Origin: Vulcanimicrobiota bacterium
GTDB taxonomy: Bacteria; Vulcanimicrobiota; Vulcanimicrobiia; Eremiobacterales; Eremiobacteraceae
Direction of reading: 5' to 3'
Length of the DNA stretch: 64,000 nucleotides
Assembly: GCA_963805945.1 (NCBI GenBank)
Contig: CAWDVP010000001.1
Span: 352,001 to 416,000, forward strand
The notes below the pieces were generated by a model. It saw nothing but the letters and a program-made list of their open reading frames with translations, made no database searches and was not told the origin of the DNA. Position numbers and translations under genes: made by a program. Of the stretch, positions 12,553 through 51,118 are shown one piece after another (positions within the stretch are counted from its first letter, which is position 1; every line of letters begins with the position of its first letter).

Positions 12553-12579
12553 CGGTCGAATAAATTCGACCGCTCCATC
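12553..12579 (-). repeat. REP-like palindrome, family A, intergenic copy
   Basis: GATGGAG-CGGTCGAAT-TT-ATTCGACCG between the PPIase gene and modA. Confidence 0.85.
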
Positions 12580-12591
12580 GAGGTTCGTGGT

Positions 12592-14130
12592 CTAGCGGGG
12601 GTTGTAGCCGATTTCGACGGTGCGCAGCTTCTGCTCGACGTCGGCGGTCTGCGGGGTGACGGGCTCGCAGCGGTACATCTTGCTCACGACGTCGGCTGGC
12701 GTCTTGTGGTCTGACGGATCGTGCTTGGCCATGTTGTATGCCACGGCAAGCCCCTTGACGATCCGCCCGAAGGTGCTGAAGTTCTCGTCGAGGTGCAGCT
12801 GCGGGGACTCCGTCATGTAGTACTGGCTGCCGGCGGAGTCGTAGATCGGCCGGTTGGTCGTGTCGCTGTAGTCGAGCCCGAACGCGATCACGCCCGTGAG
12901 CTGCTCGATCGGGTTCACCTCATCGGGCACGTTGAAGCCCGGGCCGCCGTTGCCGTTGGGCTTGTCCGCATCCGGGTCGCCGCCTTGGAGGACGAAGTCG
13001 AGGATGACGCGGTTGAACGTGGTGTTGTTGTAGAAACCGGTGTCGACCATGTGCACGAACGCGTCGACGGTGTACGGCGCGGCATCCGGGAACAGCTCGA
13101 CCACGATGACGCCCTTGTTCGTGACGATCGCCACCTGCGGATGGTCCCCGGACGGTGCAGACGTCGGCAGCGCCTTCGGCTCGACGCGGTCTTCCGCTGG
13201 CACCGCCGGCGGGCGCAGGTCGACGATGGTGCCGGTGTCCTTCAAGATGTCGAGCGTGTTGCGCACTTCGACGCGCACGCGCCACGAGGGGTCGCCCACC
13301 AAGAGCCGGACGGGGATGACGAACGTCTTGTCCTTGAGCCTGCCGACGGCTTTGACCGCGTACAGACGGACCAGCTCTTCTTGATCGGTGAGCATGGTGC
13401 GCAGCAGCCCAGGATTGGTGTCGTAATACGCGCGATAGATGGCCCACGCCATTCGCCAGCGCGTCTCTTGGTCGCGTTCGGTGACGAACGCGCTGTCGAG
13501 CGTCTTGCCCGCCTGGTCCTTGAGCGGCTGCGTGAGCGCCGGCTTGCTGGCGAACGTCGACTCGCCCAATCCGATGGCGGCCTTGCCGCGCACGAATGCG
13601 TTCGGACTGTTGAGCAGATCGATGAGCGTGCCCACCGCTTCGGCGCCACCGATGCGGCCGAGCGAATCTGCCGCAGTGCCGGCGACGAGCGGCGAGCCGT
13701 GCATCGCGGCCATGCGTAGCGTGGGCACTCCCTCCGCCGACGCGATCACGCCGAGGCCGAATGCCGCCGCAGCTTTGACGTTCTCGGGCTGCGTGCCCGA
13801 CGTGAGCAGCGGCGTCAGCAACGCGACGCCTTGCGTCTTGCGCAGCCGCCCGATGGCGATCGCCGCGCGCGCGACCACGGCCGGATCGCTCGACGCCAGA
13901 AACGGTTCGAAGGCGGTCGGTGCCGTTGCACGATTGCGTTCGAGCTTGCCGATCTGGCCGAACGGCGATGTATCGGGCAGGCTCGGCGTCGGCGGCCCGA
14001 TCCCTTTGGTGGCGATCGGCTGCGGTGATCCTGTGCCGGTCGGCGATGGTGCAGGCGTGGGAGTGGCGGCGGTCAGAGCGAGCAGCACGAGCGCGGCGGC
14101 GCCGACCGCGAGGGAGCGTTCAAATCTCAT
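12592..14130 (-). CDS. Exported HEAT-repeat protein with a C-terminal cyclophilin-type PPIase domain
   Basis: Signal peptide, repeated V-x-x-x-A-A-x-x-L-G HEAT units, then [39 protein letters not shown]. Confidence 0.85.
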
Positions 14131-15404
14131 TCGTTATGCCAATAGTCTTTGAGCGCTTTGCCGCGGCTCGGGTGGCGCAGCTTGCGCAGCGCCTTCGCCT
14201 CGATCTGGCGGATGCGCTCGCGGGTGACGCCGAACTCCTGGCCCACTTCTTCGAGCGTGCGCTGGTGGCCGTCTTCGAGCCCGAAGCGCAGCACGAGCAC
14301 CTTGCGTTCGCGCTCGGTGAGGTTCTGCAGCACGTCGCCCATCTTCTCTTTGAGCATCGTCACCGATGCCGCTTCCGCCGGCGCCACCGCGTCGGGATCC
14401 TCGATGAAGTCGGAGAGATGGCTGTCCTCTTCTTCGCCGATCGGCGTCTCGAGCGAGATCGGCTCTTGCGCGATCTTCATGACCTCGCGCACCTTGTCGG
14501 GCGTGAGGCCCATCTCTTCGGCGATCTCTTCCACCGAAGGATCGCGGCCGAGCTCTTGCAGCAACTGGCGGGAGATCTTGACGAGACGGTTGATGGTCTC
14601 GACCATGTGCACCGGGATGCGGATGGTGCGTGCCTGGTCGGCGAGCGCGCGCGTGATGGCCTGGCGGATCCACCACGTCGCATAGGTGGAGAACTTGTAG
14701 CCCTTCTTGTAGTCGAACTTCTCGACCGCGCGGATCAGGCCGAGATTGCCTTCCTGGATGAGGTCGAGGAAGAGCATGCCGCGGCCGACGTACTTCTTCG
14801 CGATGCTCACCACGAGCCGCAGGTTGGCCTCGGTGAGGTCGCGTTTGGCGCCGTCGCCGATGTCGAGGATCTCTTGATCGCCGGGCGCGCCGTTGAGCCG
14901 CGCGCGCTCGCGCTCCTCTTCGGCGTGTTCGATCTTCTTGGCGAGGTCTTGCTCTTGCGCCATCCCAAGCAGCGGCACGCGGCCGATCTCCTTGAGATAC
15001 ATCCGTACGGGATCGTCGAGCGCGATGCCGGGCGGCACCGGGATCTCGACGGGCTCGGGCTCGACGACGACCTTCTTGACGACGGCGGCTTCGCTCTGCT
15101 CGTCGTCATCGTCGTCGTCGTCGGCCACGGTGAGATCGGGCATCTCGGTGATCTCGATGCTCTGGCCCATGATCTCTTCGACGAGCTCGTTGCCCTTCTC
15201 CGGATCGTCCTCGTCGTAGGCGGCGGAGATCGCCGCGATCTCGTCATAGGTGAGGAAGCCCTGCTTCTTGCCCTTTTCGATGAGCGTCTTCACCGCCGCT
15301 TCGCGCGGCACGAGCACGCCGGCGGGCTGGCCGTTGGCGGATGCTTCGGCGTTCGCGGGTGGTGATGCGACGGTTTTCGTCTTCGGCTTCTTGCCGGGGC
15401 TCAC
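14127..15404 (-). CDS. rpoD: RNA polymerase primary sigma factor
   Basis: [52 protein letters not shown]. Confidence 0.98.
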
Positions 15405-15411
15405 GGTGGGG

Positions 15412-17190: not shown

Positions 17191-17224
17191 GTCCGCTAGT
17201 TTGGCGCGCCCGAAGGGCGGGCCT

Positions 17225-18305
17225 TTACAGGTCCCATTCCCTTGGCGCAAGGCTCTCCGAGCCCGGGAACAGCGCCACGAACTGCTTGATCGCGAAGCGG
17301 TCGGTGAAGCCCGCGACGTAGTCGCACACGCGGCGCCCCGGCGTGTCCGCAGCGAGCGGTTCCTGGCCGAACATCTCCGGCAGCTCGTCCAGATGCTCCA
17401 TGTAATGACGGAAGAGGCGCTTCACGATGTTCTGCGCCTTCGGCTCTTCGCGTTTCGCCGCCTCGTTGAAGTAGACACGGGCGAACATGAACTCCTTGAT
17501 CGCCTCGACGGCCTCGAGCACCGGTTCCGAGAGCTTGATCTCCGCCGTGCCGCGGCATTGGTACACCATGTCCTGCACGACGGTCTCGATGCGGATCGGG
17601 CCGCGCGCCCCGAGCACCGAGATCGCCTTGGCCGGCAGCTCGCGCTCGCTGATGATGCCCGCGCGGATGGCGTCGTCGATGTCGTGGTTGATGTACGCAA
17701 GGCGATCCGCGTAGCGCACGATCTGGCCTTCGAGCGTGGACGGGATGTCCGCGTAGCCGGCGAGCGCGCCCTTGTTCTTGCTGTGCTTGGCGATGCCGTC
17801 GAGCACCTCATAGGTGAGGTTCAAGCCCACCTTATCGCCGCGCCGTTCGAGCAGTTCCACGACGCGCAGGCTCTGCTGCGAGTGCACGAACTGCGCGCCC
17901 TCGCTCGAATTCCGACCAGACTTCCGTGAGCGCCGACTCGCCGGCGTGGCCGAACGGCGAGTGGCCGAGGTCGTGGCCGAGCGCGATCGCCTCGGCGAGG
18001 TCCTCGTTGAGGCTGAGGCCGCGGGCGATCGTGCGCGAGATCTGCAGACCTCGAGCGTGTGCGTCATGCGCGTGCGGTAGTGGTCGCCGAGCGGCGAGAG
18101 GAACACCTGCGTCTTGTGCATGAGCCGCCGGAACGCTTTGGAGTGGATGATGCGGTCGCGGTCGCGCTGGAAACAGGTGCGCAGCGCGTCCTCGGGCTCC
18201 GAGCACGCGCCGGCCGCGCGAATTGCGCGCCAGCATGGCGTGCGGCGAGAGCATCGAGGCCTCGCGCGCCTCGAGCTCTTCACGGATCGACTGGGTTGTG
18301 CTCAT
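17225..18305 (-). CDS. dgt: Deoxyguanosinetriphosphate triphosphohydrolase (about three frameshifts)
   Basis: [50 protein letters not shown] and HDIDDA split across frames; upstream of dnaG. Confidence 0.9.
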
Positions 18306-18346
18306 GCGTTCTCAATCACGCCGACGGGGCGCGGCGACGAGGTGTG

Positions 18347-18371
18347 CGGTCGAATAAATTCGACCGCTCCA

Positions 18372-18373
<2 letters not shown>
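18347..18373 (-). repeat. REP-like palindrome, family A, abutting the ppdK stop codon
   Basis: Identical to the 12553 copy; its GA overlaps the ppdK TGA. Confidence 0.85.
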
Positions 18374-21302
<2,929 letters not shown>

Positions 21303-25526: not shown

Positions 25527-25543
25527 ACGCTTAGACCTCCGAA

Positions 25544-25568
25544 GGCCGATCTAAAGATCGGCCCTTAC
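25544..25568 (-). repeat. REP-like palindrome, family B
   Basis: GTAAG-GGCCGATCT-TT-AGATCGGCC, perfect 9-bp stem, between rlmN and the ABC ATPase gene. Confidence 0.65.
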
Positions 25569-25573: not shown

Positions 25574-26677
25574 CTATGATGCGCGGGCTTTGTCGACCCG
25601 CAGTTGGCCGCAGGCCGCCGCGATATCGGCGCCCATCGTGTGACGGATCGTGCTCGGCACGCCCCGCTCGCGCAGGATCGTCTGGAAGCGGCGCATCGCC
25701 GCGACCGGCGAACTGCCGTACGGCGCGTCCGTCGCGTTGTACGGGATCAGGTTGACGTGGTGCAGCGGACCACCGAGCAGATCGGCGAGCTGGCGCGCGT
25801 CGTCCGGCGAGTCGTTGATGCCGTTGAGCATGATGTATTCATAGAACACCTTGCGATGCGTCTTCGCGACGTACTCGTTGGTGGCATGCATGAGCGTCTC
25901 GATCGGCCACTTCTTGTTGATGGGCATGAGCTTAGTGCGCAGCACGTCGTCGGCCGCGTGCAGCGAGATCGCCAGGTTCACCTGGATGCCCTGGCCGGTG
26001 AAACGCTCGATGCCCGGCACGACGCCGGCGGTGGAGATGGTCATGTGGCGCGCGCCGAGGTTGAAGCCCGCGGCGTCGTTGAGCAGCGTCACCGCGTCCA
26101 TCACCTGATCGTAGTTGAGGAACGGCTCGCCCATGCCCATGAACACGATGTTCGTGAGGTCACGCCCTTCGGCGCGCGCCCTTCGGGCGACGTCGACCGC
26201 CTGGTCGAAGATCTCGAGCGCCCGCAGGTTGCGAAAGAAACCGCCCTGACCGGTGGCGCAGAAGTCGCACTTGAGCGCACAGCCGGCTTGCGATGAGATG
26301 CAGGCGGTCGTGCGTCCGCCGCGGTGGCGCATGAGGACCGCTTCGACCTCTTTGCCGTCGGCGAGAGCGAAGAGCAGTTTGGTCGTCTGACCATCGCCTG
26401 ATGTCGCCTCGTGGACGAGCGAAAGCGTGGAGAGCTTGACGGTTTCCGCCAGCCGGCCGCGCAACGCAGCCGGCAGCACGCTCATCGCCTCGAACGACGG
26501 CGCGAGCTCTTTGGTCGCGGCGCGATAGATCTGCGCCAGCCGGTAGCGCTGCAGCTCGTAGGCGGTCGCAAGCGCCTCGGCGCTGTCGATGCCGGCAGCC
26601 TTCGCGCGACCCTCCCACCACAGCTCCTGCGGTGTTGGAGCGGTCGAATTCATTCGACCGTTTGCGTCTTTCATCAC
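25574..26677 (-). CDS. rlmN: 23S rRNA (A2503) methyltransferase, radical SAM
   Basis: CISSQAGCALKCDFCATG, MGMGEP, LAISLHA, GADIAAACGQL. Confidence 0.95.
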   Translation of the reverse strand: MMKDANGRMNSTAPTPQELWWEGRAKAAGIDSAEALATAYELQRYRLAQIYRAATKELAPSFEAMSVLPAALRGRLAETVKLSTLSLVHEATSGDGQTTKLLFALADGKEVEAVLMRHRGGRTTACISSQAGCALKCDFCATGQGGFFRNLRALEIFDQAVDVARRARAEGRDLTNIVFMGMGEPFLNYDQVMDAVTLLNDAAGFNLGARHMTISTAGVVPGIERFTGQGIQVNLAISLHAADDVLRTKLMPINKKWPIETLMHATNEYVAKTHRKVFYEYIMLNGINDSPDDARQLADLLGGPLHHVNLIPYNATDAPYGSSPVAAMRRFQTILRERGVPSTIRHTMGADIAAACGQLRVDKARAS

Positions 26678-26748
26678 TCTTCTATTCCGCCGAACAGCGT
26701 TGGCGGTTCTGGATCTTCACGGCGGTCGAATGAATTCGACCGCTCCAT
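26636..26748. repeat. Inverted doublet of family A palindromes, both inside coding sequence
   Basis: 26636-26660 on + and 26723-26748 on -, 62 bp apart, bracketing the udg stop and rlmN start. Confidence 0.85.
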
Positions 26749-27375
26749 CTCCTGTGGGGGCGGCGGCGAGGCGAGCTCGTCGAGCTTGCGCCGCACCGCC
26801 TGGAGGTCGGCCCACACCAGCTTCTTCACCGCCGTCATGTTGCCGCCGGTCTGCCGCAAGATGTACGCAGGATGGAAGGTCACGGTGAGGTCGGCGCCAT
26901 TGGGGCCACGATGCCACATCCCCCGCTGGCGCGTGATCGAGAAGGCAGGCCCGAGGAACGATTTGGCGGCCGGCGCGCCGAGCGCGAGGATGATCGCGGG
27001 CCGCACGATCTCGAGCTCACGGTCGAGATACTCCCGGCAGTTCGCCATCTCTTCCTGCATCGGCGCGCGGTTCGCGATGCGGCCGCCGAGCTCCACGCTC
27101 GCGCGGCATTTGATGGTGTTGGTGATGAAGACGTCCTCGCGCCGCAAATCGATCGCCGCGAGCATCTTGGTGAGCAGTTCGCCGGCTCGTCCGACGAACG
27201 GCTCGCCGCGCGCGTCTTCGCTCTCGCCCGGGCCTTCGCCGACGATCACCAGTCGCGCGTGCGGGTCGCCGACACCGCACACCACCTTGGTCCGCGTCGA
27301 GCCGATCGCGCAGCGCCGGCACGCGTCGACCGTCGCGTGCAGCGCATCGAGCGCGATGCGACGATCCGAATCCAT
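26674..27375 (-). CDS. udg: Uracil-DNA glycosylase, family 4 (Fe-S)
   Basis: CRRC, VGEGPG..ED..GEPFVGRAG, TNTIKCR, TFHPAY; ATG at 27375. Confidence 0.92.
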   Translation of the reverse strand: MDSDRRIALDALHATVDACRRCAIGSTRTKVVCGVGDPHARLVIVGEGPGESEDARGEPFVGRAGELLTKMLAAIDLRREDVFITNTIKCRASVELGGRIANRAPMQEEMANCREYLDRELEIVRPAIILALGAPAAKSFLGPAFSITRQRGMWHRGPNGADLTVTFHPAYILRQTGGNMTAVKKLVWADLQAVRRKLDELASPPPPQEMERSNSFDRREDPEPPTLFGGIEE

Positions 27376-28288
27376 CAGCCCCGCGCCACCCAGCTGAGAA
27401 ACGCCGCCCGCAGCGCGACGACGACGCCCGCGAGCAGCGCGGCGTAGACGACATAGCGCCCGACGAGCGCGGCCGACAGCGTATAGTGCCATAGACGTCC
27501 GTGATGTTTGATCCAGTAGAGCCGCCGGCTGCGCTGCCGCCAGTTCAGCACGCCGAGCTTGCCCCAGCGCTTCTGGCTGCCGCCTTGCTCCGACTTGTGC
27601 ATCGCGACGCACTGCGGCAAGAAGACGACGCGCGCGCCGCGCTCGTCGGAGCCGGTGCGCGAAGTCGATCTCCTCGTGATACAGGAAGAAACGCTCGTCG
27701 AAGCCGCCGAGCTCCGCGAAGACGCCTGCGCGGATGAACATCGCCGCGCCGACCACGAGGTCGACGTCGCGCTCGCTCGCGTAGTCGAAATCGCGCAGCG
27801 CGTAGCCGTTCGACTGCGCGCGGAACATCGGCCATTCGCCCCAGGCGGAGCTGCGCAAGAACGCCTGCCACCAGGTGTCGAACTCGCCGCACGACGGCGT
27901 CAGCTTGCCTTCTTCATCGAGCAGTTTGACGCCGGCCATGGCGACGTCGGGATGCGCGGCGAAGTAGTCCACCGCATTGCGGAGCAGGCCCGGCATGGCG
28001 CGCGCATCGGGGTTGAAGAAGAATAGCAGCGGCGCATGGGCCGCGCGCGCGCCGATGTTGCAGGCCTTGGCGAAGCCGTAGTTCTCGCCGTTCTCGAGGA
28101 TCGTCGCCGCGGGGAACACCGCGCGGGCGCGCGCGACGCTGTCGTCGGCCGAGCCGTTGTCCGAGACGACGATCTGCGCGAACTGGGGATCGCCCGCGAT
28201 CTCGGGCAGCGCCGCGAGCGAGCGCAAACAGCCTTCCAGCTCGTCGGCCGCGTTGTAGCTCACGATGATGACGCACACTTCTGGGCAT
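27375..28288 (-). CDS. Glycosyltransferase family 2 (WbbL-like; frameshifted)
   Basis: IIVSYN, DNGSAD, NYGFAKACN, FFNPD, GGFDERFFLYHEEID. Confidence 0.88.
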
Positions 28289-28356
28289 TCAGGCGTTGTT
28301 CTGCAAAAAAAACGAGCGTCTTGCAGACGCTCGTCGGAATGGTCCCGTTTCTTTAG

Positions 28357-28709: not shown

Positions 28710-29817
28710 ATGGCGACGACACCGGACGACCAGCGCGCCCACGGCGGTCTGGGCTTCGACTGGATCATGACCGTCTTGAGCGGCTTCATGGTCGGCGGGC
28801 TCTACATCGACGGCTGGGCGCACAACCACCTGCCCGACTATCGAGACCTTCTTCACGCCCTGGCACGCGATCTTCTGCACCAGTTTCGCGCTGCTGGCGT
28901 TCATCTTCGCGTGGTATGTCGTCGCCGGGCTTCGCGCCGCGCCCGGAGCGGTCGAATCTATTCGACCGTTGGTCGCCGCGATCCCGCAGGGCTACGAATG
29001 GTCGGCGATCGGCGTCGCGCTCTTCGCGCTCGCAGGCGTCGGCGACATGCTCTGGCATATACGCTTCGGCATCGAGCACGACACCGAGGCGCTGCTCAGC
29101 CCCACCCATCTCGGCCTTGCCACCGGCATGGCGCTCATCATGCTCGGGCCGTTTCGCGCGGCCGTCGCGCGCGGCGCGAACGCCGCGGGCGCCGCGCTGT
29201 GGCCCGCGGTGCTCTCGCTCACCTTGCTCTACTCGGGTCTGACCTTCATCACGCAGTTCGCGCCCGCGATGGCCACCTGGGGCGTGGGGCCGATGCCGCA
29301 CGGCGACCTGGCGGAGCTTCGGCTCGACCGCTCGGTGACGGCGCAATTGCTCGATGCGGCGCTGCTGTCCGGCGTCGTCGTGCTGCTGGTGCGCCAATGG
29401 GGCGCGCGTTTGCCGTTCGGCGCGATCACCGCGTTGCTGCTCGGCAATTCGCTGCTCATGGAGACGCAGCAGGGCGGCTCGGAGCAGCTGCTCGGCATCG
29501 CGTTCGCCGGTCTGCTGAGCGATGCGCTCATCTGGTGGCTGCGGCCGTCGGCGCAGCGCATCGCGCAGTTCCGCTGGGTGGCGTTCGCCGTGCCGTGCCT
29601 CTACTTCGCGGCCCACTACGTCACGTACGCGATGCGCGGATACCCGGTCTACTATAAGATACACATCTGGGCGGGCCTGCCGGTCATCGCGGGTCTGGTC
29701 GGGCTCTTGCGAGCTTTCTCGCCGTTACGGGCCCGCGTTCTTCGCCGTCCGCCGCGCCTGCAGATACGCCAGCATGAACTGGTCGAGGTCGCCATCGAGC
29801 ACGCGCTGCGAGTCTGA
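28710..29817 (+). CDS. Polytopic membrane protein with two D-x3-H...P-x-H motifs (frameshift near 28836; 3' end uncertain)
   Basis: YIDGWAHNH..ETFFTPWH and GDMLWHIRFGIEHDTEALLSPTH, multiple transmembrane helices. Confidence 0.75.
28945..28968 (+). repeat. REP-like palindrome, family A, in frame in the membrane protein gene
   Basis: GGAG-CGGTCGAAT-CT-ATTCGACCG, translated as GAVESIRP. Confidence 0.8.
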
Positions 29818-30936: not shown

Positions 30937-31884
30937 GTGAGCTCGGTGAGACGGATTTCGACATTTTTCGCTATTATCGCGTTGGCGGTGCTGCCGCTGA
31001 CCCTCATGGGCGCGGCCACGTCGCCCCAAATACAGGTGCCCAAGGGCGCCGCCATCATCTATAACCCCGGAAACGGCGATTACACCGGTTTTCTCATCCT
31101 GGTGGACCACAACGGTCGGGCCTGGGCAGCGGACGGCGCTGGCCGGGGCTTTGGTCAATTGCAGCCGGCGCTCACGCAAATGCTGTTCACCGATCTCGCC
31201 GCGGCGGGACCCGCCCGGCTCCCGGTCCGCGTCTGCGCATCGACGCAGCCCGACCTCGCGGGCACCTCGATCTGGGTCAATGCGCCGAACGCCGCCAGTG
31301 CGGGTCGCGCACCGAGCCTTGAATGCGGATCCGATGCGCACAGCGAGAAGGTCGTCGCAGATACGTCGCTCATCCAGCATGCGCTCTACGTGCACGCGTA
31401 TCGCATCCGCAGGGCCCCAGAGCTGTATGCCGGGACCGCGAGCAGTTACGCCGGGAACGGCAGCGGCGGCAGCTACGCGCGTCAAGGCTCGTCTGCTGCG
31501 CCGACTTTCGGCTACGGCTTCTACGGCGACTCAGGCCTTGCGGGGGGGTTCAACGGCGGCGGTTACGGCAGTTTCAACAACACCAGCTTCGGCAATGGCC
31601 TCAACGCCAGCGGCAATTTCAACAGCACCAGCTTCGGTAGCGGCCTCAACGCCAGCGGCAATTTCAACAGCACCAGCTTCGGTAGCGGCCTCAACGCCAG
31701 CGGCAATTTCAACAACACCAGCTTCGGCAGCGGCCTCAACGCCAGCGGCAATTTCAACAGCACCAGCTTCGGTAGCGGCCTCAACGCCAGCGGCAATTTC
31801 AACAGCACCAGCTTCGGTAACGGCCTCAATAACGCCAGCAGCGGTCTTAGCATCGGCAGCGGTCTTAGCGGCCGCGCCCAATAG
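30937..31884 (+). CDS. Secreted protein with C-terminal Gly/Ser/Asn/Phe tandem repeats
   Basis: GGAG before the GTG start, signal peptide, 15-aa repeat FNSTSFGSGLNASGN. Confidence 0.8.
   Translation: MSSVRRISTFFAIIALAVLPLTLMGAATSPQIQVPKGAAIIYNPGNGDYTGFLILVDHNGRAWAADGAGRGFGQLQPALTQMLFTDLAAAGPARLPVRVCASTQPDLAGTSIWVNAPNAASAGRAPSLECGSDAHSEKVVADTSLIQHALYVHAYRIRRAPELYAGTASSYAGNGSGGSYARQGSSAAPTFGYGFYGDSGLAGGFNGGGYGSFNNTSFGNGLNASGNFNSTSFGSGLNASGNFNSTSFGSGLNASGNFNNTSFGSGLNASGNFNSTSFGSGLNASGNFNSTSFGNGLNNASSGLSIGSGLSGRAQ
31573..31830 (+). repeat. 45-bp coding tandem repeat, 5 full units and 1 partial
   Basis: Units start at 31573, 31618, 31663, 31708, 31753 and 31798. Confidence 0.95.
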
Positions 31885-39926: not shown

Positions 39927-42688
39927 TCAGATCCGAAGCGCTTCTTCGACCGCCACGTCTTCGTTCATCCGGGCGCCGACCGCTCGAAGCCGTGCGAATT
40001 CGTCGTCGCCGATCGCGGACCGGATCGCCTTTTCGAGCGCGTCGAGCGACACTTGTTCCGTGCTCTCGATACTGAAGTTGTTGCGCCCGAACGTCTCCTC
40101 GGTGTAGCCAAGCAGGCGCGCGGCGAGCTGAGGGTCGCCTTGCTCCGCTCCGACGCGGGCGAGATTCATGATGCTTATCGCGACGTGCGAAGGGGCCTGC
40201 GCGTCACGCGCAATCCTCAACCCCTCCCTTGCACGGCGTCGGCCCTCCTCGAAGCGACCGAGCGCGAGGAGGTACGCGGCGAGGTTGTTGTAGCTGATAT
40301 ATGAGCGCGCCGTGGTGATTTCGAGATTCTCAAGCGCGAGCTCGACCGCCCGTGCTGCGTCGCCCATCGAGAACTCGATCTCCGCAAGGTTGCCTACGAC
40401 TGTCGAACGTACGCGATCGTTGCCTACGGCGCGCGCGATGGCGAGCGCTTCCGCATAGAGGCTGCGCGCATCCGCGACCCTGCCCCCGAAATGCAGATTC
40501 CGCGCCATCGCCGATTTGACGCCGGCGATCCGGTTCTGGTAGCCCATCTTTTCCGCGAGCACGAGCGCCTCGTCCAAGTACCGCTGCGCCTCTTCGTGTC
40601 GGAACTGACGCAAGCACGCCTCACCTATTTGGACAAGAGAGCTTTGAATGCCCGCGATATCATCAAGCTCTCGGTAGAGCAGCAACGCGCGTTCCGCGTA
40701 TTCTCGCGCTTTCGGCCACGACACCACGGCGAGGCTTTGGACCCTGTAGAGCCCCGTCCAAAGCCGTGCGATCGTCTGCTTCGAGGAGATCTCGCCCCCG
40801 AGCGCCAGCGCGGCATCGACGCGTGCCCGCCCTTCCGCGTCATACCCCTCCCACGACCAGTAGTCGTACATGTTCGAGGTGAGCGCCGCGCCGAGCTCGA
40901 CATCGTGCTTCTCGGCCAGCGCCCAGTCGAGCGCGGCGCGGATGTTGTCGAGCTCCGGGTCGATGAGCGCGAGGTATGCCCTCGTCGGCACTGTCTCTCG
41001 GAACGTTGCGGCGCGTTTTGCGAAGTCGAGGAACTATTTCGCATGCCGGATCTGCATCGGCTCGAGCTCGCCGCTCTTCTCGAGCAGCTCGTGCGCGTAC
41101 TGACGCGTCGATTCGAGCAGGCGGTAGCGCTGTTCCGAGCCGGAGAGCTCCGCGACGACCATCGACTTGTCGACGAGCGACTGGAGGAGGTCCAAGACCG
41201 CCCATTCCTCGATCGTCTCATCCGAGCAGACCGCCGATGCGGCGTCGAGCGTCCAGCCGCCGGCGAAGACCGCGACGCGGCGGAAGAGCGTCTTCTCGTC
41301 GTCGGTCAGCAGGTCGTAGCTCCAGTCGACGAGCGCGCGCATCGTCTGCTGCCGCGGCAGCGCCGTCCGGCTGCCGCCGGTGAGGATGCGGAAGCGCTCG
41401 TCGAGCGCGACTCGAGCTGCTCGAGGCTCAGCGCCTTGAGACGCGGCGCGGCGAGCTCGATCGCGAGCGCGATGCCGTCGAGCCGGTTGCACAGGCGCGC
41501 GACGATCGGCGCGTTCTCGTCGGTGAGGCGGAACGACTCGGTCGCCGCGATCGCCCGTTCGACGAAGAGCGCGACGGCGCCGTGCCGCATCGCCTCCTCG
41601 GCACTCACGTCGGCCGGTTGTTTCGGGCACCGCGAGCGAGGGGACCCGGTGGACGGACTCCCCATCGATGCCGAGGCCCTGGCGCGTCGTCGCGATGATG
41701 CGGACGTTCGGGCAGTTGCGCAAGGATCGCGTCGATGAGCCTGGCGGCCGGCTCGACGACGTGCTCGCAGTTGTCGAAGATGATGAGCGCGCGCCGCGAC
41801 TTGAGGGCGTGGACGATCGCCTCGGTCATCGTCCTGTTCGCCCCCTCGCTGATGTGGAAGATCGACGCGATCGCGTTCGGGATGAGATCGTCGTCGGACA
41901 GCGGCGCGAGCTCGACGAGCCAGACGCCGTCCGCGTAGCGGTCGAGCAGATCGGCGCCCACCTGCAGCGCGAGGCGCGTCTTGCCGACGCCGCCCGCACC
42001 GACGAGCGTGACGAGCCGGTGCTTGGCGAGCAGTCTCCGAGCACGGTGAGGATTTCGACGTCGCGGCCGACGAAGCTCGTGATCTGAAGCGGCAAGTTGT
42101 TCGGCAGCGCTTCGAGCGAGCGCAGCGGCGGGAAATCCGACGCGAGTCCGGGCGCTACGAGCTGGTAGACCTGCTCGGGATGCGTCAGATCTTTGAGACG
42201 GTGCTCGCCGAGATCGCGCAGCGCGGCCTGCGGCGGCAGCTCGCCTTGCGAAGATCCGCGCTCGCGCCCGAAACGAGCACCTGGCCGCCGTGGCCGATCG
42301 CGAGCAGCCGCGCGACGCGATTGACCGCCGGTCCGAAATAGTCGCCGTCGCGCTCGTCAGTATGCCCGGTGTGGATCGCCATCCGCACCTTGAGGTCGTC
42401 GACGCCCGACCAATCCTCGGCGGCGAGCCGTTTCTGTGCGTCGAGCGACGCGGCGATCGCGTCAGCGACATTGTGAAACGCCGCGCAAAACGCGTCGCCG
42501 ATCGTCTTGAAGACGTGTCCGTCGTGGGCTTCGATCGCCGCCTGAAGGATCTCATCGTTGCGGCGAACGGCGGATTTCATCTGCTCGCGATGGCGCTCCC
42601 ATCGTTGCGTCGAGCCTTCGATGTCGGTGAACAGGAACGTGACGGTGCCGGTCGGGAGCTGCTTGCGGGCTGCTATCGTCTCAGACAC
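39927..42688 (-). CDS. Class III nucleotide cyclase - STAND NTPase - TPR protein (several frameshifts)
   Basis: TFLFTDIEGST, KTIGDAFCAAF, DYFGPAVNRVARL; Walker A GAGGVGKT, FDNCEH, LDGIALAIELAA; TPR-like C-terminus. Confidence 0.88.
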
Positions 42689-42861
42689 GGTGACCTTTCG
42701 GAGCAGGCGCCAATTTCATGCGACGACGGTGACGGGCTGATACTCCAGCCCAGCCTGATGCGAGCTATACTTCGCCCAGACATCGCGGCTTCCTAGGATA
42801 TGGGAAGCGCGAGGCGCTTGAACGCGATGAAGTGACGGCGCGCCATTGCACTTCTTTTTTT

Positions 42862-42908
42862 CGCTGACGCGGCCTAAGTGTCCCAAGACAGCCGGGCACA
42901 ACTCTTTT

Positions 42909-42924
<16 letters not shown>
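42862..42924. repeat. 16-bp perfect inverted repeat overlapping the secA stop, enclosing a family D motif
   Basis: CGCTGACGCGGCCTAA (42862-42877) and TTAGGCCGCGTCAGCG (42909-42924). Confidence 0.85.
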
Positions 42925-45608
<2,684 letters not shown>

Positions 45609-45622
45609 TGAAGTCGTACGTC

Positions 45623-45961
45623 CTATGCTATGGGTTCGGCAGGCCCGCGGTCTTCGTTCGAGCCGAGCTTGTGGCGCTTGTCGAGCAGGCGCGTCTTCAG
45701 TTTCTCTATCTGGTGCTCGAGCCGATCGCGCACGAGGTCGACGGCCTCATCGACGCTCCTGGAGCGCTCTTCCGCCTTGAGCACGTGCTGCGGCAGGTTC
45801 ATGACGACGTCCACGATGCGCAGCTCGCGTTCCGCGCGCAAGGTCACGTGCGCGTCGATGATACGCGCGTTGTGGCGCTCGAGCCGCTCGAGCTGCTCCT
45901 CGACGTGGCGGCGCAGCGCGTCCGTCACCTCGAGGTTCCGGCCCTTTATATATATCTTCAT
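45623..45961 (-). CDS. hpf: Ribosome hibernation promoting factor (short form)
   Basis: [21 protein letters not shown]-like C-terminal helix; upstream of secA. Confidence 0.88.
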
Positions 45962-46008
45962 GTGGATGACGCTTTGAGATAGAGATGCGGGAGTTCTGCC
46001 GATTCCAT

Positions 46009-46146
46009 CTAGTGAAAATGAAGTCCTGCCCGCAGCGCGATTTCATAGGCGGCGAAAGCCACCACCGCGATGCCGACGATGACGAGCACGACCCGGGTGA
46101 TGATGTACGGGCGCTGCGAGCGGGTCTTGATGATCTGGCGTTTCAT
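46009..46146 (-). CDS. Small single-pass membrane protein
   Basis: ATG overlaps the previous stop; one transmembrane helix; 45 aa. Confidence 0.5.
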   Translation of the reverse strand: MKRQIIKTRSQRPYIITRVVLVIVGIAVVAFAAYEIALRAGLHFH

Positions 46147-47006
46147 GATCGACCCGAGCTTCGCTCGGGCACTACCGGAGCGACGACGTCGACCGGAATC
46201 GGGTCGTTGATCTCGTCCAAGGTCAGCCGCTGCTGCAGTTGTGAGAGCGTCACGAACTCGAAGCCGGCGCGGCGGTAGGCGTCGACGATCGACGGCAGCG
46301 CGGCGACGGTGGCGTCGGAGCCGTTGTGCAATAGGATCACCGCGGGCGACTTGGCGGTCTTCGTCACATTGGCGATGATGAAATCGGGCGACAGGCGCTT
46401 CCAATCTCCCGGATCGACATCCCACAGCGCCATCGTCTGGCGGTTCGATCGCACGGCGTCAAGCGTGGCGCCGTCGAAGTTGCCGTGCGGCGGGCGGAAA
46501 TACGCCGGCACCTGGCCCGTGCGGCGCTTGATGGCGGTCGCGCCGTCCGCGATCTCCGCGAGCTGCGCCGGGAAGAGCAGCGTCTTCATCTGCGGATGGC
46601 TCAGCGTGTGATCGCCGATCTCGTTGCCGCCGGCCGCCATGCGCGCGGCGATCGCAGGCTGTTCGGTGGCATCGCGGCCGATCAGGAAGAAGTCGGCGGG
46701 CACACCCAGGCGTTGCAGCGCCGCGAGCAGCGCCGGTGTCGCCACCGGGTACGGGCCGTCATCGAAGGTCAGGACGGCATAGCGCGGGTGCCGGGGCGGC
46801 GCGAAGGCGTCGCGCACGTCGAGCGCCATGCGCTGCACGAGCGCGCGCGGCGAGGGATGGAAGATATCGTCACTGGTCGCGGCCTGGGGCACGATCACCG
46901 GCACGAGTTCCGCGCGTGCGTGGCCGACCCAGCGGCGCAGGCCGAGGCTCGCCGCGAGCACGAGAAAGACGATGACGGCGAAGATCGCGACGCGGCGGGC
47001 TGACAC
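46143..47006 (-). CDS. Polysaccharide deacetylase (NodB/CE4)
   Basis: LTFDDGP, GDHTLSH, FRPPHG, WDVDPGDW, ILLH. Confidence 0.92.
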   Translation of the reverse strand: MSARRVAIFAVIVFLVLAASLGLRRWVGHARAELVPVIVPQAATSDDIFHPSPRALVQRMALDVRDAFAPPRHPRYAVLTFDDGPYPVATPALLAALQRLGVPADFFLIGRDATEQPAIAARMAAGGNEIGDHTLSHPQMKTLLFPAQLAEIADGATAIKRRTGQVPAYFRPPHGNFDGATLDAVRSNRQTMALWDVDPGDWKRLSPDFIIANVTKTAKSPAVILLHNGSDATVAALPSIVDAYRRAGFEFVTLSQLQQRLTLDEINDPIPVDVVAPVVPERSSGRS

Positions 47007-47007
47007 G

Positions 47008-48324
47008 CTACTGCGCGCGGTAATCCCGACCGATGACGATGTCGATGTCGCCGCCGACGACATCGCCGGTCGTGACCTCCGGGTCCTTTATGGGCAGGCG
47101 CTTGGCGACCTCACCGACGATAGTCTTATCAGAGCCGGTGACGGTGGTCTTCGGGTTGTTGAAGGTCGCCGCGTTGCCCGTCGAGACGACGTCAAAACCT
47201 TTTTGGCGCAGGTAATCCGCCAGCGCCGAGGCGGCGCCGGGTTGGCCCGAGCCGTTGTGCACGACGACGTGCACGGTCGAGGGGTCGAATTCGCCGCCGA
47301 AACCGGCGACGAGGTACTTCTGCACGATCGGCTTGCCCGCCGCGGCGTCGTAGTAGAGCACGGACTCGCCGTTGGTGAACCCCTCGAGCACCGGCAGGCC
47401 CACGGTGTGCACCATCGCCGGCGTCTCGCCGCGCAGCGCGAGCGCGAGGTAGAACAGCTTGTCGTAGGAGAGGTCGGTGCGGACGTTGTCCTGCACCAAG
47501 CCGATGAGCGACGGTAGTTTCCCGAAGATCGCTGGATCTTTCATGCGTTTCACCAGATCGCCGATCACCTGGCGCTGGCGCCGCATCCGGCCGAAATCGC
47601 CTTCGGGGTCGTGGCGGAAGCGGATGTAGCCGACCGCCTGCTCGCCGTTGAGATGCTGCGGGCCTTTCTTAAGATGGATGTGCAGATGTCCCCAGCTGTC
47701 GTCGTAGTCCATGTCCTTCTCGACGTTCGTGTTGACGCCGCCGATCGCGTCGACGAGATTCTTCGTGGCGTCGATCCTAAGAACGATATAGTTGTCGAAT
47801 GGCGGAAAGTTGAGGTTATCGACGAGCGTCTTGGCGGAGCGCAATGGGCCGCCGTCGGCGACCGCCTCGTTGACCTTGCCGTAGCCGCTCTTGGGGATGT
47901 GCACCCACAGATCGCGCGGCACGGAGACGATGCTCACGTCGTGCGACGCCAAGTCGATGTTCACCGCCAGCATGGTGTCCGAACGGCTGGTCGAGGTGTA
48001 CGCCTCGTCTTTCTCGGTCCAGTTCTCATCCAGACCCAAGACCAGCACGCGCAGTTTCTGTTTGCCGAAGATCTCGGTGAGATCCGGCGACGCGAGATCG
48101 AACGGCGCGAGCGCGTTCATGAGGCCGTGCTTGTGATGGATGTAGACGCCGAGCGATACGCCCGCGACGATGACCAGCGCGAGCAACGCGGTGAGCAGGA
48201 AGACCCTGCGCGGCCGTGGGGGCGCGACGGGCACATCCGTGTTCGGGATCGGCGGCGGAGTCTCGAGTTGGTCGGGCAACGTGCCTCCGGTCTTGGCGGG
48301 CGGCGGCAGCGCCGTCCTGGACAA
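47008..48324 (-). CDS. LCP family protein with a LytR C-terminal domain
   Basis: RSDTML, SVPRD, RFRHD..GDFGRMRRQ; VVHNGSGQPGAA. Confidence 0.92.
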   Translation of the reverse strand: MSRTALPPPAKTGGTLPDQLETPPPIPNTDVPVAPPRPRRVFLLTALLALVIVAGVSLGVYIHHKHGLMNALAPFDLASPDLTEIFGKQKLRVLVLGLDENWTEKDEAYTSTSRSDTMLAVNIDLASHDVSIVSVPRDLWVHIPKSGYGKVNEAVADGGPLRSAKTLVDNLNFPPFDNYIVLRIDATKNLVDAIGGVNTNVEKDMDYDDSWGHLHIHLKKGPQHLNGEQAVGYIRFRHDPEGDFGRMRRQRQVIGDLVKRMKDPAIFGKLPSLIGLVQDNVRTDLSYDKLFYLALALRGETPAMVHTVGLPVLEGFTNGESVLYYDAAAGKPIVQKYLVAGFGGEFDPSTVHVVVHNGSGQPGAASALADYLRQKGFDVVSTGNAATFNNPKTTVTGSDKTIVGEVAKRLPIKDPEVTTGDVVGGDIDIVIGRDYRAQ

Positions 48325-48385
48325 CTCTTCTATTGTAGGTGCAGCCGGGGTGCCGGCATAGGGCGTGCGCGCTGCGCCGGGCGAC

Positions 48386-49771
48386 TTAGGTCGCGGCGAC
48401 GGCGACGAGCAGTGGTCGAGCGGCGCGATCGAAATCCGTGTGGCCGACCATCTGTGCGCTCACGAACTCTCCGACCGGATGCTCTCCGCTGACGAAGACC
48501 GAGCCATCGACCCCCGGCGCTTCGCGCGCGGACCGTCCCACCGAGACGAGCCGTTCGCCGAGGAGCGTGCGGAGCGGCGATGCGGGCGTCAACAACCTCT
48601 TGCCCTCGATGAGGACCTCCAAACGTTCCCCGACGCGCTGCGAGTCGACGTCGAGCGAGATGCGCCGTTGCGCGTCGCGAGCCTGTGCGAGGCGGCGGCG
48701 CTTGACGCTTTCGGCCACCTGCGCCGGCGCGTCGTATGCAGGCGTTCCCTCTTCGCGCGAGTAGGCGAAAAACCCGACTCGATCGAGGCGTGCGCGCTCG
48801 AGAAATGTGAGGAGATAGTGAAAATGTTCATCCGTTTCACCGGGAAAACCCAGGATGAAGGTGCTGCGGATGGTCGCATCCGGCAAGGCCGCGCGCAGGC
48901 CGGCGAACAGCTCGAGGTAGCGTTCGGGCGCCGGCGGACGGTGCATCGCCTTGAGGATGTCCGGATGCGCGTGCTGCAGCGGCATGTCGACGTACGGGAT
49001 CACGGTGCGCGACGCTCGGATCGCCGCGACGATCTCCGGCGTGACCGACGTCGGATAGAGGTACAAGATGCGCACCCACTCGATGCCGTGCACCGCGTCG
49101 AGCGCTTCGATCAGCCGCGCGAGGCCGTGGCGCAGCCCGATGTCGCGCCCGTAATCCGATGAATCCTGCGCCACGAGGATGAGCTCTTTGACGCCGCCGG
49201 CCGCCAGCGCGCGCGCCTCTTCGACGAGCGACGGGATCGTGCGGCTCTTGCCGAGGCCGCGCAGCGTCGGGATGATGCAGAAGGCGCAGGTGTGGTTGCA
49301 GCCCTCGGAGATCTTGAGATAGGCGGTGGCGCGCGGCGTCGTGACCACCCGGGGCAGAAAACCGAGCCGCTCCACGTACTCGTCGCGGTCCTCGAGATGC
49401 AAGGGGCGCATGCCGGCGTCCACTTCACGCATGATCTCTGGGATCTTAGGGAACGCGCCGGTGCCCACCACCGCGTCGATCTCGGGGATCAGCTCGCGCA
49501 GCTCCGCGCCGTAGCGCTGCGCCAGACAGCCGGCGACGATGAGACGCTGTCCGGGCCGTTTGGCCGCGGCGTACTCGAGGATCGCGTCGGTAGATTCAGC
49601 TTTGGCGGGGTTGATGAACGCACATGTGTTGACGATGACCGCATCCGCGTCGCCGGCCTCGCCGGTGATCTCCCAGCCCTCGCCCGCGAAACGGCCGAGC
49701 ATCACCTCGCCGTCGATGAGGTTCTTGGCGCAGCCCAGGCTCGCGAGGAACGCGCGGCGCGCGCGCGTCAA
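48386..49771 (-). CDS. rimO: Ribosomal protein S12 methylthiotransferase
   Basis: SLGCAKNLID, NTCAFI, KISEGCNHTCAFCIIP, APGVDG. Confidence 0.93.
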   Translation of the reverse strand: MTRARRAFLASLGCAKNLIDGEVMLGRFAGEGWEITGEAGDADAVIVNTCAFINPAKAESTDAILEYAAAKRPGQRLIVAGCLAQRYGAELRELIPEIDAVVGTGAFPKIPEIMREVDAGMRPLHLEDRDEYVERLGFLPRVVTTPRATAYLKISEGCNHTCAFCIIPTLRGLGKSRTIPSLVEEARALAAGGVKELILVAQDSSDYGRDIGLRHGLARLIEALDAVHGIEWVRILYLYPTSVTPEIVAAIRASRTVIPYVDMPLQHAHPDILKAMHRPPAPERYLELFAGLRAALPDATIRSTFILGFPGETDEHFHYLLTFLERARLDRVGFFAYSREEGTPAYDAPAQVAESVKRRRLAQARDAQRRISLDVDSQRVGERLEVLIEGKRLLTPASPLRTLLGERLVSVGRSAREAPGVDGSVFVSGEHPVGEFVSAQMVGHTDFDRAARPLLVAVAAT

Positions 49772-50259
49772 CGGTAGTTCACGAATTGGACGGCGAAATC
49801 GAGCGGCAGCCCTTTGATGAGGTCGATCACCTTCTGCAGGTCGTCTTTTGACTTGCTCGTCACGCGCAGCTGCTCGTCTTGGATCCTCGTCGTGACCTTC
49901 AGCTTCGAGTCTTTGATCGCCTCAGTGAGCTGCTTGGCGCGCTCCTTGGCGATGCCTTGCTCGCACGTGACGACTTGGCGCAGCGTGCCTTGGGATGCCG
50001 CCTCGGGCGTGCCGAACTTGAGCGCCTTGAGCGAGACGCCGCGTTTCACGAACTTGCCCTGGAGTATGTCCACGATGTTCTTGCGCTTGAGCTCGTCGTC
50101 GGCGATGATCGTGATCTGCATGTCGCCGAGGTCGATGCTCGACTTGGAATTACGGAAATCGAAACGCGTGGCGATCTCGCGCTGCGCTTGATCCACGGCG
50201 TCGGCGAAGTTCTGTTTGTCGACTCGAGAGACGACGTCGAATGAGAACTCGCTACTCAC
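49768..50259 (-). CDS. yajQ: YajQ family nucleotide-binding protein
   Basis: SFDVVS, RFDF, KDDLQ, QFVNYR. Confidence 0.95.
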   Translation of the reverse strand: MSSEFSFDVVSRVDKQNFADAVDQAQREIATRFDFRNSKSSIDLGDMQITIIADDELKRKNIVDILQGKFVKRGVSLKALKFGTPEAASQGTLRQVVTCEQGIAKERAKQLTEAIKDSKLKVTTRIQDEQLRVTSKSKDDLQKVIDLIKGLPLDFAVQFVNYR

Positions 50260-51118
50260 GCGGCCCGGTCGTCAGCTGCGACGAGGTCTTGGCGGCGAAG
50301 ACGCGCTCTTCGACTTGGCCGTGCTGGCCGAGCGTGCCGAGCGACCGGCCGTCGATGGTCGCGTTCACCCCGCCTGCATTGCCGGCGCGCAGCGAGATCT
50401 CGCGCACGCCGTGGAACGCCCGCACCGTGCCCGCGGGCAAGGTCTCGTACACCACGCGCTTGCCATCCACCGTCACGGAGAGCCAGCTGTCCTGCGTCAG
50501 CTGCAGCTGCAGGTTGACGCCGGGGCGCGCGCCCGCGTCGGTCGCGCCGGCGCTGGCGGCGTTGAACACCGCCGCATCTTGCGGCGCGGGCGACGCGATG
50601 CTCGTATCGGGCTGGGTGACGGCCGGCGCTGCCTGCGACTGCTGTCGCGGCGCCGGTCCGAACGTGTAGTAGAGCACCGCGATGACGAGCGCGGCGGCAA
50701 GCGTGCTCATGAGCCCGAGCAGCCACGGATACCACGCCCGCGTGGTCGCAGCGGTCGAGTTCACTCGACCGACGTGACCGCTGCGGTCGAATGAATTCGT
50801 ATCTGGCGTAGATGGAGCGGTCGAATTCATTCGACCGTCGTCTACGACGGTTTGCGTCTCGATCGTGTCCGTCGCCGGCGGCTGCATCGGCACCGCGGCG
50901 TTGAGCTGCTCCGCGACGACGTGCTGATCGATCCCCAGCATGCGCGCGTAGTTGCGCACGAAGCCACGCGCGTACGCCGGCGCGCCGAGCTTCGCCCAGT
51001 CCTCCGCCTCGATCGCGGCGATGTACTGTGAACGGATATGCAGTCGCTCGGCCGCTTCTTGGGCCGTGATGCCGCGCTTCTCGCGCGCGGCGGCGATCTG
51101 CTCACCAAGACCGGTCAT
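50252..51118 (-). CDS. rodZ: RodZ-like protein (HTH, transmembrane helix, DUF4115)
   Basis: GEQIAAARE..YARGFVRNYA; transmembrane helix; SWLSVTVDG..GNAGGV. Confidence 0.85.
   Translation of the reverse strand: MTGLGEQIAAAREKRGITAQEAAERLHIRSQYIAAIEAEDWAKLGAPAYARGFVRNYARMLGIDQHVVAEQLNAAVPMQPPATDTIETQTVVDDGRMNSTAPSTPDTNSFDRSGHVGRVNSTAATTRAWYPWLLGLMSTLAAALVIAVLYYTFGPAPRQQSQAAPAVTQPDTSIASPAPQDAAVFNAASAGATDAGARPGVNLQLQLTQDSWLSVTVDGKRVVYETLPAGTVRAFHGVREISLRAGNAGGVNATIDGRSLGTLGQHGQVEERVFAAKTSSQLTTGPRE
50752..50837. repeat. Cluster of three family A palindromes, in frame in the rodZ linker
   Basis: 50752-50771 (covariant CGGTCGAGT-TC-ACTCGACCG), 50784-50799 (partial, opposite orientation), 50812-50837 (full). 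Confidence 0.85.

Follow-up and report, generated by a model that had tools for sequence, protein, structure and literature searches.

REP1, the name given here to a repeat made up of a GGAG or GTAG tag and a hairpin with an 8-bp stem, lies both between and inside the genes of a soil bacterium of the Vulcanimicrobiota (G000). The reading that best accounts for it (probability about 0.8) is that REP1 is a GTAG-type REP spread by a RAYT (TnpA-REP) HUH enzyme early in the genus, that the RAYT it belonged to later disappeared or came to use a different REP, and that its coding copies are mostly tolerated passengers.

In the window, the 64-kb stretch of DNA analyzed here, the motif CGGTCGAAT-NN-ATTCGACCG has seven matches with two or fewer mismatches, six of them exact (12553, 18347, 26641, 26723, 28949, and 50818) and one, at 50752, with two mismatches. 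The expectation from the shuffled window is 0.01 matches, and none of 100 shuffles reached seven, so the motif picked out in an earlier note on this DNA is real and far above chance. That note counted eight copies; the eighth, at 50784, is a decayed copy with four mismatches and a damaged tag end. It also began the unit at GATGGAG, but the conserved unit is the 24-nt (AT)GGAG/GTAG tag plus palindrome, beyond which the flanks are variable. With its 8-bp stem, 4-nt loop (z of -4 to -5), and adjoining tag, REP1 has the anatomy of a GTAG-type REP, defined by a stem of 7 to 20 bp, a loop of 2 to 5 nt, and a tetranucleotide 0 to 2 nt 5' of the foot (PMC6006769). Tags of that REP type read GTAG or GTGG. 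In G000 the tag is GGAG in 125 of the 162 copies and GTAG in 21; it is mostly GTAG in G002, and GGAG is also carried by sister REPs that flank the RAYTs of relatives, although it is not among the GTAG-REP tag variants in the text of PMC3733652. An Rfam search of the window returned no matches. An operator bound by a transcription factor (the Gram-positive SOS box, for example) is rejected on the one-sided tag and on insertion relative to orthologues; the spacing of that box also differs from that of REP1. Uptake-sequence and HIP1-type motifs, another known class of short repeats considered for REP1, are rejected since the copies sit at indels and where sequence was replaced. The repeats and host genes of the window are as follows.

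6578..6600, minus strand: REP3 copy; its GTAG tag supplies a stop codon
12553..12576, minus strand: REP1 copy, GGAG tag plus 20-nt palindrome; intergenic, 3' of the stop of a HEAT/cyclophilin gene
18347..18370, minus strand: REP1 copy; intergenic, immediately 3' of the ppdK stop
25543..25568, minus strand: REP2 copy; intergenic, after rlmN; its family borders the only RAYT of the genome
25574..26677, minus strand: rlmN; start codon and udg stop overlap, likewise in orthologues
26637..26660, plus strand: REP1 in rlmN, antisense to the gene; predicted GRMNSTAP at the N-terminus (predicted junction peptide MNSTAPTPQELWWEGR)
26674..27375, minus strand: udg, family-4 uracil-DNA glycosylase
26723..26746, minus strand: REP1 in udg, within the variable C-terminal tail; predicted (M)ERSNSFDR
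28710..29750 (end approximate), plus strand: gene for a membrane protein outside any Pfam family, with frameshifts in the present assembly
28945..28968, plus strand: REP1 in a membrane-protein loop; the assembly gives GAVESIRP, close relatives give ERSNLFDRW
46153..46175, minus strand: REP3 copy; lengthens the C-terminus of a polysaccharide deacetylase, reading VVPERSSGRS and then stop
50252..51115, minus strand: rodZ
50748..50837: three REP1 copies in the cytoplasmic linker of RodZ (50748-50771, plus strand; 50784-50803, decayed; 50814-50837, plus strand)
59282..59304, plus strand: REP3 copy; in-frame RTALGHY within the linker of FtsK; absent from the earlier note

Both copies called intergenic by the note, at 12553 and 18347, indeed lie just after the stops of their neighboring genes, and the first is missing at the same site in two relatives, G005 and G006. 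Across the genome, REP1 is a high-copy, dispersed, lineage-specific family with 162 copies over 8 contigs and none in a reversed control, bearing out the proposed genome-wide enrichment. Under a codon model, these divide into 83 intergenic, 45 coding, 26 possibly N-terminal, and 8 with an internal stop. The family is depleted within genes relative to the 79% coding share of the genome, yet far less so than REP2: copies lying fully in reading frames number 45 of 162 for REP1, 20 of 69 for REP3, and 2 of 154 for REP2 (Fisher p 1e-12). Five of the six REP1 frames are stop-free, as the note stated, and the mean number of open frames is 4.9 for REP1, 5.1 for REP3, and 3.3 for REP2; this gap of roughly 1.5-fold is by itself too small to account for coding shares that differ 20-fold. 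The coding copies use all five open frames (20, 10, 8, 4, and 2 copies; p 1.7e-4) and not just the three seen in the window.

The orthologue alignments confirmed the in-gene repeats of RlmN, Udg, and RodZ, and the three gene identities hold (TIGR00048 and TIGR00758, both over cut-off, and HTH_25 plus RodZ_C). In rlmN, every in-frame start ahead of the conserved WW is upstream of or within the repeat, with no usable start 3' of it, and a contig of a relative covers the repeat region without a gap. The RodZ linker, with the predicted reading GRMNSTAP...NSFDR...GRVNSTAA, is 74 aa long, against 60 to 62 aa in five congeners without the three copies. More generally, REP1 lies in frame in conserved genes and is missing from their orthologues (RodZ, ValS, CarB, and others), and its coding sites are linkers, loops, and tails where orthologues vary in length, in line with the tolerant termini and linkers envisaged by the note. 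The idea that the element adds peptides fared less well. Relative to REP-less orthologues, RlmN has a net change of roughly -4 aa and ValS one of +3, while RodZ with its three copies is at +12 to +14, so the repeat mostly substitutes for variable linker.

The membrane-protein gene is a special case. Set against the contigs from runs X1 and X2, which belong to two close relatives and are not reads of this strain, the assembly shows -1 at 28839, +2 at 28937, and -1 at 28988. Correcting these indels puts the repeat in the ERSNLFDRW frame, matching G006, so the GAVESIRP peptide reported earlier is probably an assembly artefact. The loop is 39 to 42 aa long in all seven genus members against 32 to 33 aa in genera g2 and g3, and it retains a D/E-R-S-N..R-W peptide where the palindrome has been lost; this one loop may keep a fossil REP peptide.

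As the note observed, the window holds no RAYT; the genome has one elsewhere. This only RAYT (G000:C3:119.65-120.1 kb), which scores over the NF047646 cut-off and has HUH and Y--NP motifs, is flanked by REP2 and not by REP1, and REP2 was found in only 1 of 32 family genomes. In G009, G018, and G024 the RAYTs are bordered by GGAG-CGGTCGAGATTYATCTCGACCG, a hairpin that extends REP1 by one base in each arm; such near-identical hairpins tie REP1 to a RAYT family. Because the local RAYT carries REP2 while those of relatives carry near-identical hairpins, REP1 looks orphaned. The note had proposed a search for a TnpA-REP gene flanked by the motif; none was found with exact REP1, and hence no cognate RAYT of the REPtron kind. 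Exact REP1 stood beside none of the 160 RAYT loci listed (80 genome and 80 metagenome), four of which had near variants; a PF01797 search of this genome (82% complete) and 40 relatives found no REP1-flanked RAYT; a 12-sequence profile found a RAYT in only one of seven genus genomes; and an NF047646 search of five genomes found none in G002, G005, or G006, which are 97 to 98% complete and rich in REP1. The exact REP1 core occurs in 7 of 61 genomes and is abundant in four. REP1-type copies number 120 to 149 in G002, G005, and G006 and 1 to 6 in G001, G003, and G004, a nested clade in the FastTree tree. Tag-plus-hairpin anatomy, 162 dispersed copies, and the RAYT-family tie together support the mobile, REP-type hairpin that the note had suggested.

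These data suggest how the distribution may have arisen. Cut-and-join by a RAYT on single-stranded DNA would have set copies in and between genes, often with loss of adjoining bases. Many coding insertions would have remained in frame because five of the six frames are open, and selection would have retained copies at permissive sites, favoring the small, polar GRxNSTAP reading. REP1 and REP3 would be old, stop-poor families in which coding copies built up to about 28%, and REP2 a young, stop-richer family, with its RAYT present, at about 1%. The REP1 peptides are most likely tolerated passengers, and their recurrence at the same loops could reflect the small number of tolerant sites together with later replacement at existing copies. 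Several observations tell against this explanation: exact REP1 was found beside none of the RAYTs, the GGAG tag is unlisted, open frames do not by themselves explain the coding shares, and the assembly contains indels. In addition, the species differ by about 20 to 25% in DNA, yet REP1 copies are nearly perfect, a poor fit with long decay.

Some loops carry REP1 in different frames or orientations. The CarB loop copy is antisense in G000 and reads ERSNSFDR in G002 and WSGRIxST in G005 and G006; the ValS loop copy is antisense in G000 and G002 and sense in G005 (outgroup G011 and G012; motif-based loop extraction was unsuccessful in 17 of 24 genomes). The ValS and CarB sites lie at gaps in alignments with 1gax and 1bxr. 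Of the REP1 copies listed, 66 of 71 on G002:C1 share a strand across 1.3 Mb (p 1e-14), as do 57 of 58 on G005 C3 plus C4 (p 4e-16); the position of dnaA did not match the polarity switch in G002. Copies tagged on both sides also occur. From these observations it could be proposed that the hairpin rewrites the same loops in place, switching orientation and frame (CarB, ValS, and the membrane protein), that it does so in lineages where a RAYT is not detectable and strand polarity extends over the chromosome, and that at least one insert was domesticated after hairpin decay, a proposal that we regard as doubtful. A literature search that covered few subscription journals found no published account of same-loop REP recurrence in different frames.

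The broader alternative is that no RAYT is needed: replication template switching at the hairpin, gene conversion, or a protein of the host that binds DNA would maintain and rewrite REP1 where it lies. It draws on the differences in loop orientation and frame between sister species, the three nearly complete REP1-rich genomes without a RAYT, the strand polarity, and the double-tagged copies. Yet REPs commonly outlive a lost RAYT (PMC3686654), TnpA-REP itself recombines at existing REPs (PMC3333891), and HUH transposases are biased toward the lagging strand (PMC6006769), so that a recently lost RAYT explains both loop rewriting and polarity. G000, moreover, has no strand bias and only one exact double-tagged copy, and we consider rewriting without a RAYT quite unlikely. 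The possibility that copies within genes persist because the hairpin or peptide has a function (mRNA structure, translational pausing, a nucleoid-protein or gyrase site, or a useful linker) would fit the stems of the coding copies, 34 of 45 perfect and 11 with one break, the 5 of 17 checked internal sites that also hold a REP in some relative, and the membrane loop, longer genus-wide and keeping its peptide after loss of the palindrome. This explanation seems very unlikely, since conservation is no higher among coding than among intergenic copies (no significant difference in decay; Mann-Whitney p 0.18), most sites are lineage specific and lie in segments that vary freely among REP-less orthologues, and G001, G003, and G004 manage without the family.

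That the coding positions are artefacts of annotation or assembly (wrong starts or frameshifted tails), with REP1 an ordinary extragenic REP, is extremely improbable. There are indels in the assembly, the checked calls include 1 of 17 internal ones that looks spurious and 2 of 7 C-terminal ones apparently derived from frameshifts, and PMC3733652 cautions about frequent misannotation of N-terminal cases. But 16 of the 17 internal sites, including those in valS, carB, rodZ, and ftsK, are bracketed by conserved orthologous protein, no usable start follows the repeat in RlmN, and the G002, G005, and G006 assemblies also hold in-frame REP1, in 17 of 62 copies in stretches chosen around G000 coding sites. 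On these grounds the artefact explanation is already largely refuted.

Compared with known systems, REP1 under the preferred reading, a RAYT-spread REP now without its enzyme, stands close to the GTAG-family REPs that include intragenic copies, such as GTAG-17/18/19 of Opitutus terrae (Di Nocera, De Gregorio, and Rocco 2013, PMC3733652). That work already reports intragenic GTAG REPs in free-living bacteria, with 70 rows for O. terrae, so in-frame palindromes are not essentially a Rickettsia trait. The mobile REP and tolerant sites of the earlier interpretation thus stand, but its view of in-frame palindromes as a Rickettsia feature, added peptides, and three frames are not supported. Over 50% of the insertions in PMC3733652 are dimers or groups, whereas REP1 is mostly single and mostly GGAG tagged, and here orthologues reveal linker replacement and same-loop recurrence in different frames. 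As in REP-RAYT systems and REPtrons (Ton-Hoang 2012, PMC3333891; Bertels and Rainey 2011, PMC3116915; Quentin 2018, PMC6006769), class-2 TnpA-Y1 genes (HUH, Y--NP) with inverted REPs on their flanks occur here and across the family; REP1 is instead absent from the local RAYT flanks. Orphan REP classes without a cognate RAYT and REP "orthoswitches" are known (Nunvar 2013, PMC3686654). REPINs, with the inverted doublet as main unit, have been reported as almost wholly extragenic, whereas REP1 is mostly singlet (115 lone clusters against 9 inverted pairs in G000) and at least 28% coding. Rickettsia palindromic elements resemble REP1 as in-frame palindromes in functional genes (Ogata 2000/2002, via PMC3733652 and PMC3184786) but are about 105 to 146 nt long (PMC3184786) or CGTC tagged; REP1, a 24-nt, GGAG/GTAG-tagged unit linked to a RAYT family, is not one of them. 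A literature search, with few subscription journals covered, found no papers on Eremiobacterota REPs.

Because the basic phenomenon was already published, the gain is comparative, not categorical. In-gene REPs now extend to a little-studied soil phylum, and a single genome allows two families to be compared, one apparently old and orphaned with 28% of its copies coding, the other apparently young and linked to a RAYT with 1%. The series of orthologues point out loops of ValS, CarB, RodZ, Udg, and FtsK that accept predicted foreign peptides, and one loop can take insertions in several frames. On the sequence comparisons made here, the less ordinary points are the frame and orientation changes in CarB and ValS, the possible fossil peptide, and the strand polarity in two relatives; in-place rewriting of loops, if true, would suggest RAYT-independent, replication-linked REP turnover that repeatedly edits proteins. 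The persistence of REPs after RAYT loss, and a possible origin of lasting protein sequence from mobile hairpins, become testable.

Within the window (positions 352001-416000 of contig C1 of genome G000, an assembly of 2.3 Mb in 8 contigs, 82% complete and 66% GC), seven matches to CGGTCGAAT-NN-ATTCGACCG were found at no more than 2 mismatches, against a chance expectation of 0.01, and a decayed eighth copy lies at 50784. These copies bear out the palindromic repeat described in an earlier note, and profile and domain matches agree with its gene names rlmN, udg and rodZ; the remaining host, a membrane protein, matched no Pfam family. The observation is confirmed, with one reading frame in need of correction. 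Genome-wide, the motif is enriched (162 copies versus 0 in a reversed control), and this family, REP1, is one of three in G000 that combine a tag with a hairpin, each with 0 matches in the reversed control. Copies were placed with a self-trained codon model, repeats masked, which errs in both directions and missed the copy in the frameshifted membrane gene, as follows:

REP1, GGAG/GTAG-CGGTCGAATTYATTCGACCG: 162 copies; 18 internal, 27 wholly in C-terminal tails, 8 with a stop, 26 possibly N-terminal, 83 intergenic
REP2, GTAG-GGGCCGATCTTTAGATCGGCCC: 154 copies; 1 internal, 1 in a C-terminal tail, 27 with a stop, 8 possibly N-terminal, 117 intergenic
REP3, GTAG-TGCCCGAGCGAAGCTCGGG: 69 copies; 14 internal, 6 in C-terminal tails, 6 with a stop, 16 possibly N-terminal, 27 intergenic

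The REP1 hairpin has a stem of 8 bp and a loop of 4 nt, the tag staying unpaired, and most copies stand alone (115 lone clusters versus 9 inverted pairs). Its 45 coding copies are spread over 39 ORFs and, rather than the three reading frames noted earlier, occupy every one of the five open frames, though at uneven frequency (GRxNSTAP 20, GAVEFIRP 10, ERSNxFDR 8, RSNKFDRS 4, WSGRIYST 2; p 1.7e-4); the remaining copy of the 45 lies in the frame that is normally closed. Among entries checked against orthologues, which came from seven genome blocks only and were compared with the congeners G001, G002, G003, G005, and G006 (in the window also with the relatives G007, G009, and G011), 16 of 17 internal ones have orthologous protein flanks on both sides, and of eight C-terminal ones five fit, two look frameshift-derived, and one is without an orthologue. 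A prepilin-type G-MTLIELL motif at G000:C6:295752 is immediately preceded by a leader, MERSNLFDRG, that comes from REP1; with this motif, the leader would lie in the part that is cleaved off. In G005 and G006 (loci L160 and L162), a gene within the ribosomal-protein cluster, probably uL4, also holds an in-frame copy. Of the 154 REP2 copies, 27 include the stop of the gene upstream, often as the TAG of the GTAG tag, and the supply of a stop codon by a REP tag is described in PMC3733652.

Rather than adding short peptides, as first proposed, the element mostly replaces variable linker. The RodZ linker is 74 aa in G000 versus 60 to 62 in five repeat-free congeners, the net gain from three copies being only 12 to 14 aa, and the RlmN N terminus is ~4 aa shorter than in congeners; the rlmN start and the udg stop overlap, an arrangement shared with orthologues, and all in-frame starts before the conserved WW lie upstream of or inside the repeat. 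The Udg repeat falls within a tail of 30 to 50 aa that is variable across the family, and the tails of G009 and G024 carry REPs of their own in the opposite orientation. Udg tails across the family (loci L026-L055; window 26674-26760) end in words like QLTFGDL, ELKLF, or ELKLDL (PTLF in G000), and the REPs precede this word, in the linker. The terminal words resemble the sliding-clamp motif QL[SD]LF (PMC6006769).

The membrane-protein copy does lie in a loop, but its reading as GAVESIRP is probably an assembly error, since indels at 28839, 28937, and 28988 in relatives' contigs (two runs from different studies, at ~90 to 93% identity, not reads of this strain) restore the frame ERSNLFDRW, as in G006 (ERSSLLDR). 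Apparent frameshifts occur at 17225-18305 (a dGTPase-like gene), 26674-28278 (a glycosyltransferase fused to udg), and 28710-29750 (the membrane gene); since relatives' contigs do not have the additional bases seen at 27646, 27868, and 28839, these frameshifts are probably assembly errors. Consecutive ORFs at 39927-42688 with Guanylate-cyclase, NB-ARC/AAA, and TPR domains are probably one frameshifted STAND-type gene, and match a stretch of G005 at 93% identity against a background of 72 to 84%. A tandem 45-nt repeat at 31521-31874, encoding a G/N/S-rich 15-aa unit (NFNSTSFGSGLNASG), forms the end of a protein without a Pfam family, within a stretch (30.8-42.8 kb) that is not collinear with relatives.

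At 5 of the 17 internal G000 sites checked, a REP is also present in G002, G005, or G006. The CarB loop reads RSAEVDRS (antisense) in G000, ERSNSFDR in G002, and WSGRIxST in G005 and G006, and the ValS loop carries an antisense REP in G000 and G002, a sense one in G005, and none in G001, G003, or the sister genus (G011); both sites are gaps in alignments to solved structures. Such differences in frame are incompatible with simple inheritance, so that copies must have been independently inserted or replaced. Peptides containing SKDPLLQ extend the CarB loop in another genus (G007 and G030) and may derive from a different REP family. The membrane loop is 39 to 42 aa in all seven genus members (32 to 33 in genera g2 and g3, 46 in g4), and hairpin-free loops read DRSNPIVRW, EKSNLITRW, DRSNPLARW, EHSNVFARW, or DRSDILKRW at the repeat position; a fair, unproven reading of these sequences is that the loop may keep an old REP peptide after hairpin decay, a "fossil."

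The exact REP1 core occurs in 7 of 61 genomes searched and is abundant in G000, G002, G005, and G006; a looser pattern gave 219 to 450 copies in g4, 52 in G030, and 1 to 6 in G001, G003, and G004. In a midpoint-rooted FastTree phylogeny of five concatenated proteins from 27 genomes, G001, G003, and G004 group together as a nested clade, with G000 as the first branch of the genus; REP1 was therefore probably present in the ancestor of the genus and lost from the nested clade. An intergenic copy near the membrane gene (window ~28300-28350, approximately) occupies an orthologous site in G002, G005, and G006, which makes some copies older than their split. REP2 is present in only 1 of 32 family genomes (the unpublished G010, G013, and G016 count only in denominators of family tallies) and is therefore young.

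Among the copies listed, REP1 is polarized in G002:C1 beyond 0.99 Mb (66 of 71 on one strand; 100 of 120 copies listed) and in G005 C3 and C4 (57 of 58; 100 of 142), with unclear polarity elsewhere (20 of 29 and 24 of 42, respectively). The G002 stretch spans ~1.3 Mb, and its strand switch lies near 0.98 Mb, away from dnaA (0.31 Mb). Genome-wide, G000 copies show no polarity.

The single RAYT (TnpA-REP transposase) gene of G000, at C3:119.65-120.1 kb, is flanked by inverted copies of REP2, not of REP1. The hairpin flanking the RAYTs of G009, G018, and G024 is REP1 plus one base per arm, linking REP1 to this enzyme family. Among the 160 RAYT loci listed, none has exact REP1 beside it (near variants at 4), and profile searches found no RAYT gene in the six other genus genomes, three of them retested; within what was searched, REP1 is therefore an orphan. 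Orphan REPs are common after RAYT loss or REP switch (PMC3686654).

A RAYT probably placed the REP1 copies by single-strand cleavage and joining, by likeness to E. coli TnpA-REP, which in vitro cleaves and joins single strands, depends on the tag, and can recombine at REPs already in place (PMC3333891). Open frames would allow coding hits to survive, selection would retain those at tolerant sites, and the age of the family would have given them time to build up. Counting against this account, near-perfect copies persist in RAYT-less genomes ~20 to 25% apart in DNA, and the gap between REP1 and REP2 in coding copies exceeds the open-frame prediction. The REP1 peptides are probably neutral, and linkers and loops have been proposed to make intragenic GTAG REPs neutral (PMC3733652).

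Intragenic GTAG REPs of free-living bacteria are already catalogued in the same source, where at least 70 rows concern Opitutus terrae; the framing of REP1 as exceptional and Rickettsia-like was thus overstated. Repeat-ORF fusions are reviewed in PMC3184786, and related work includes PMC3116915, PMC6006769, and bioRxiv 10.1101/2021.07.10.451892; a literature search combining Eremiobacterota and REP found no paper. REP1 is genuine, a REP family that is new but belongs to a known kind, and a high share of its copies is in frame; intragenic REPs as such are already known.
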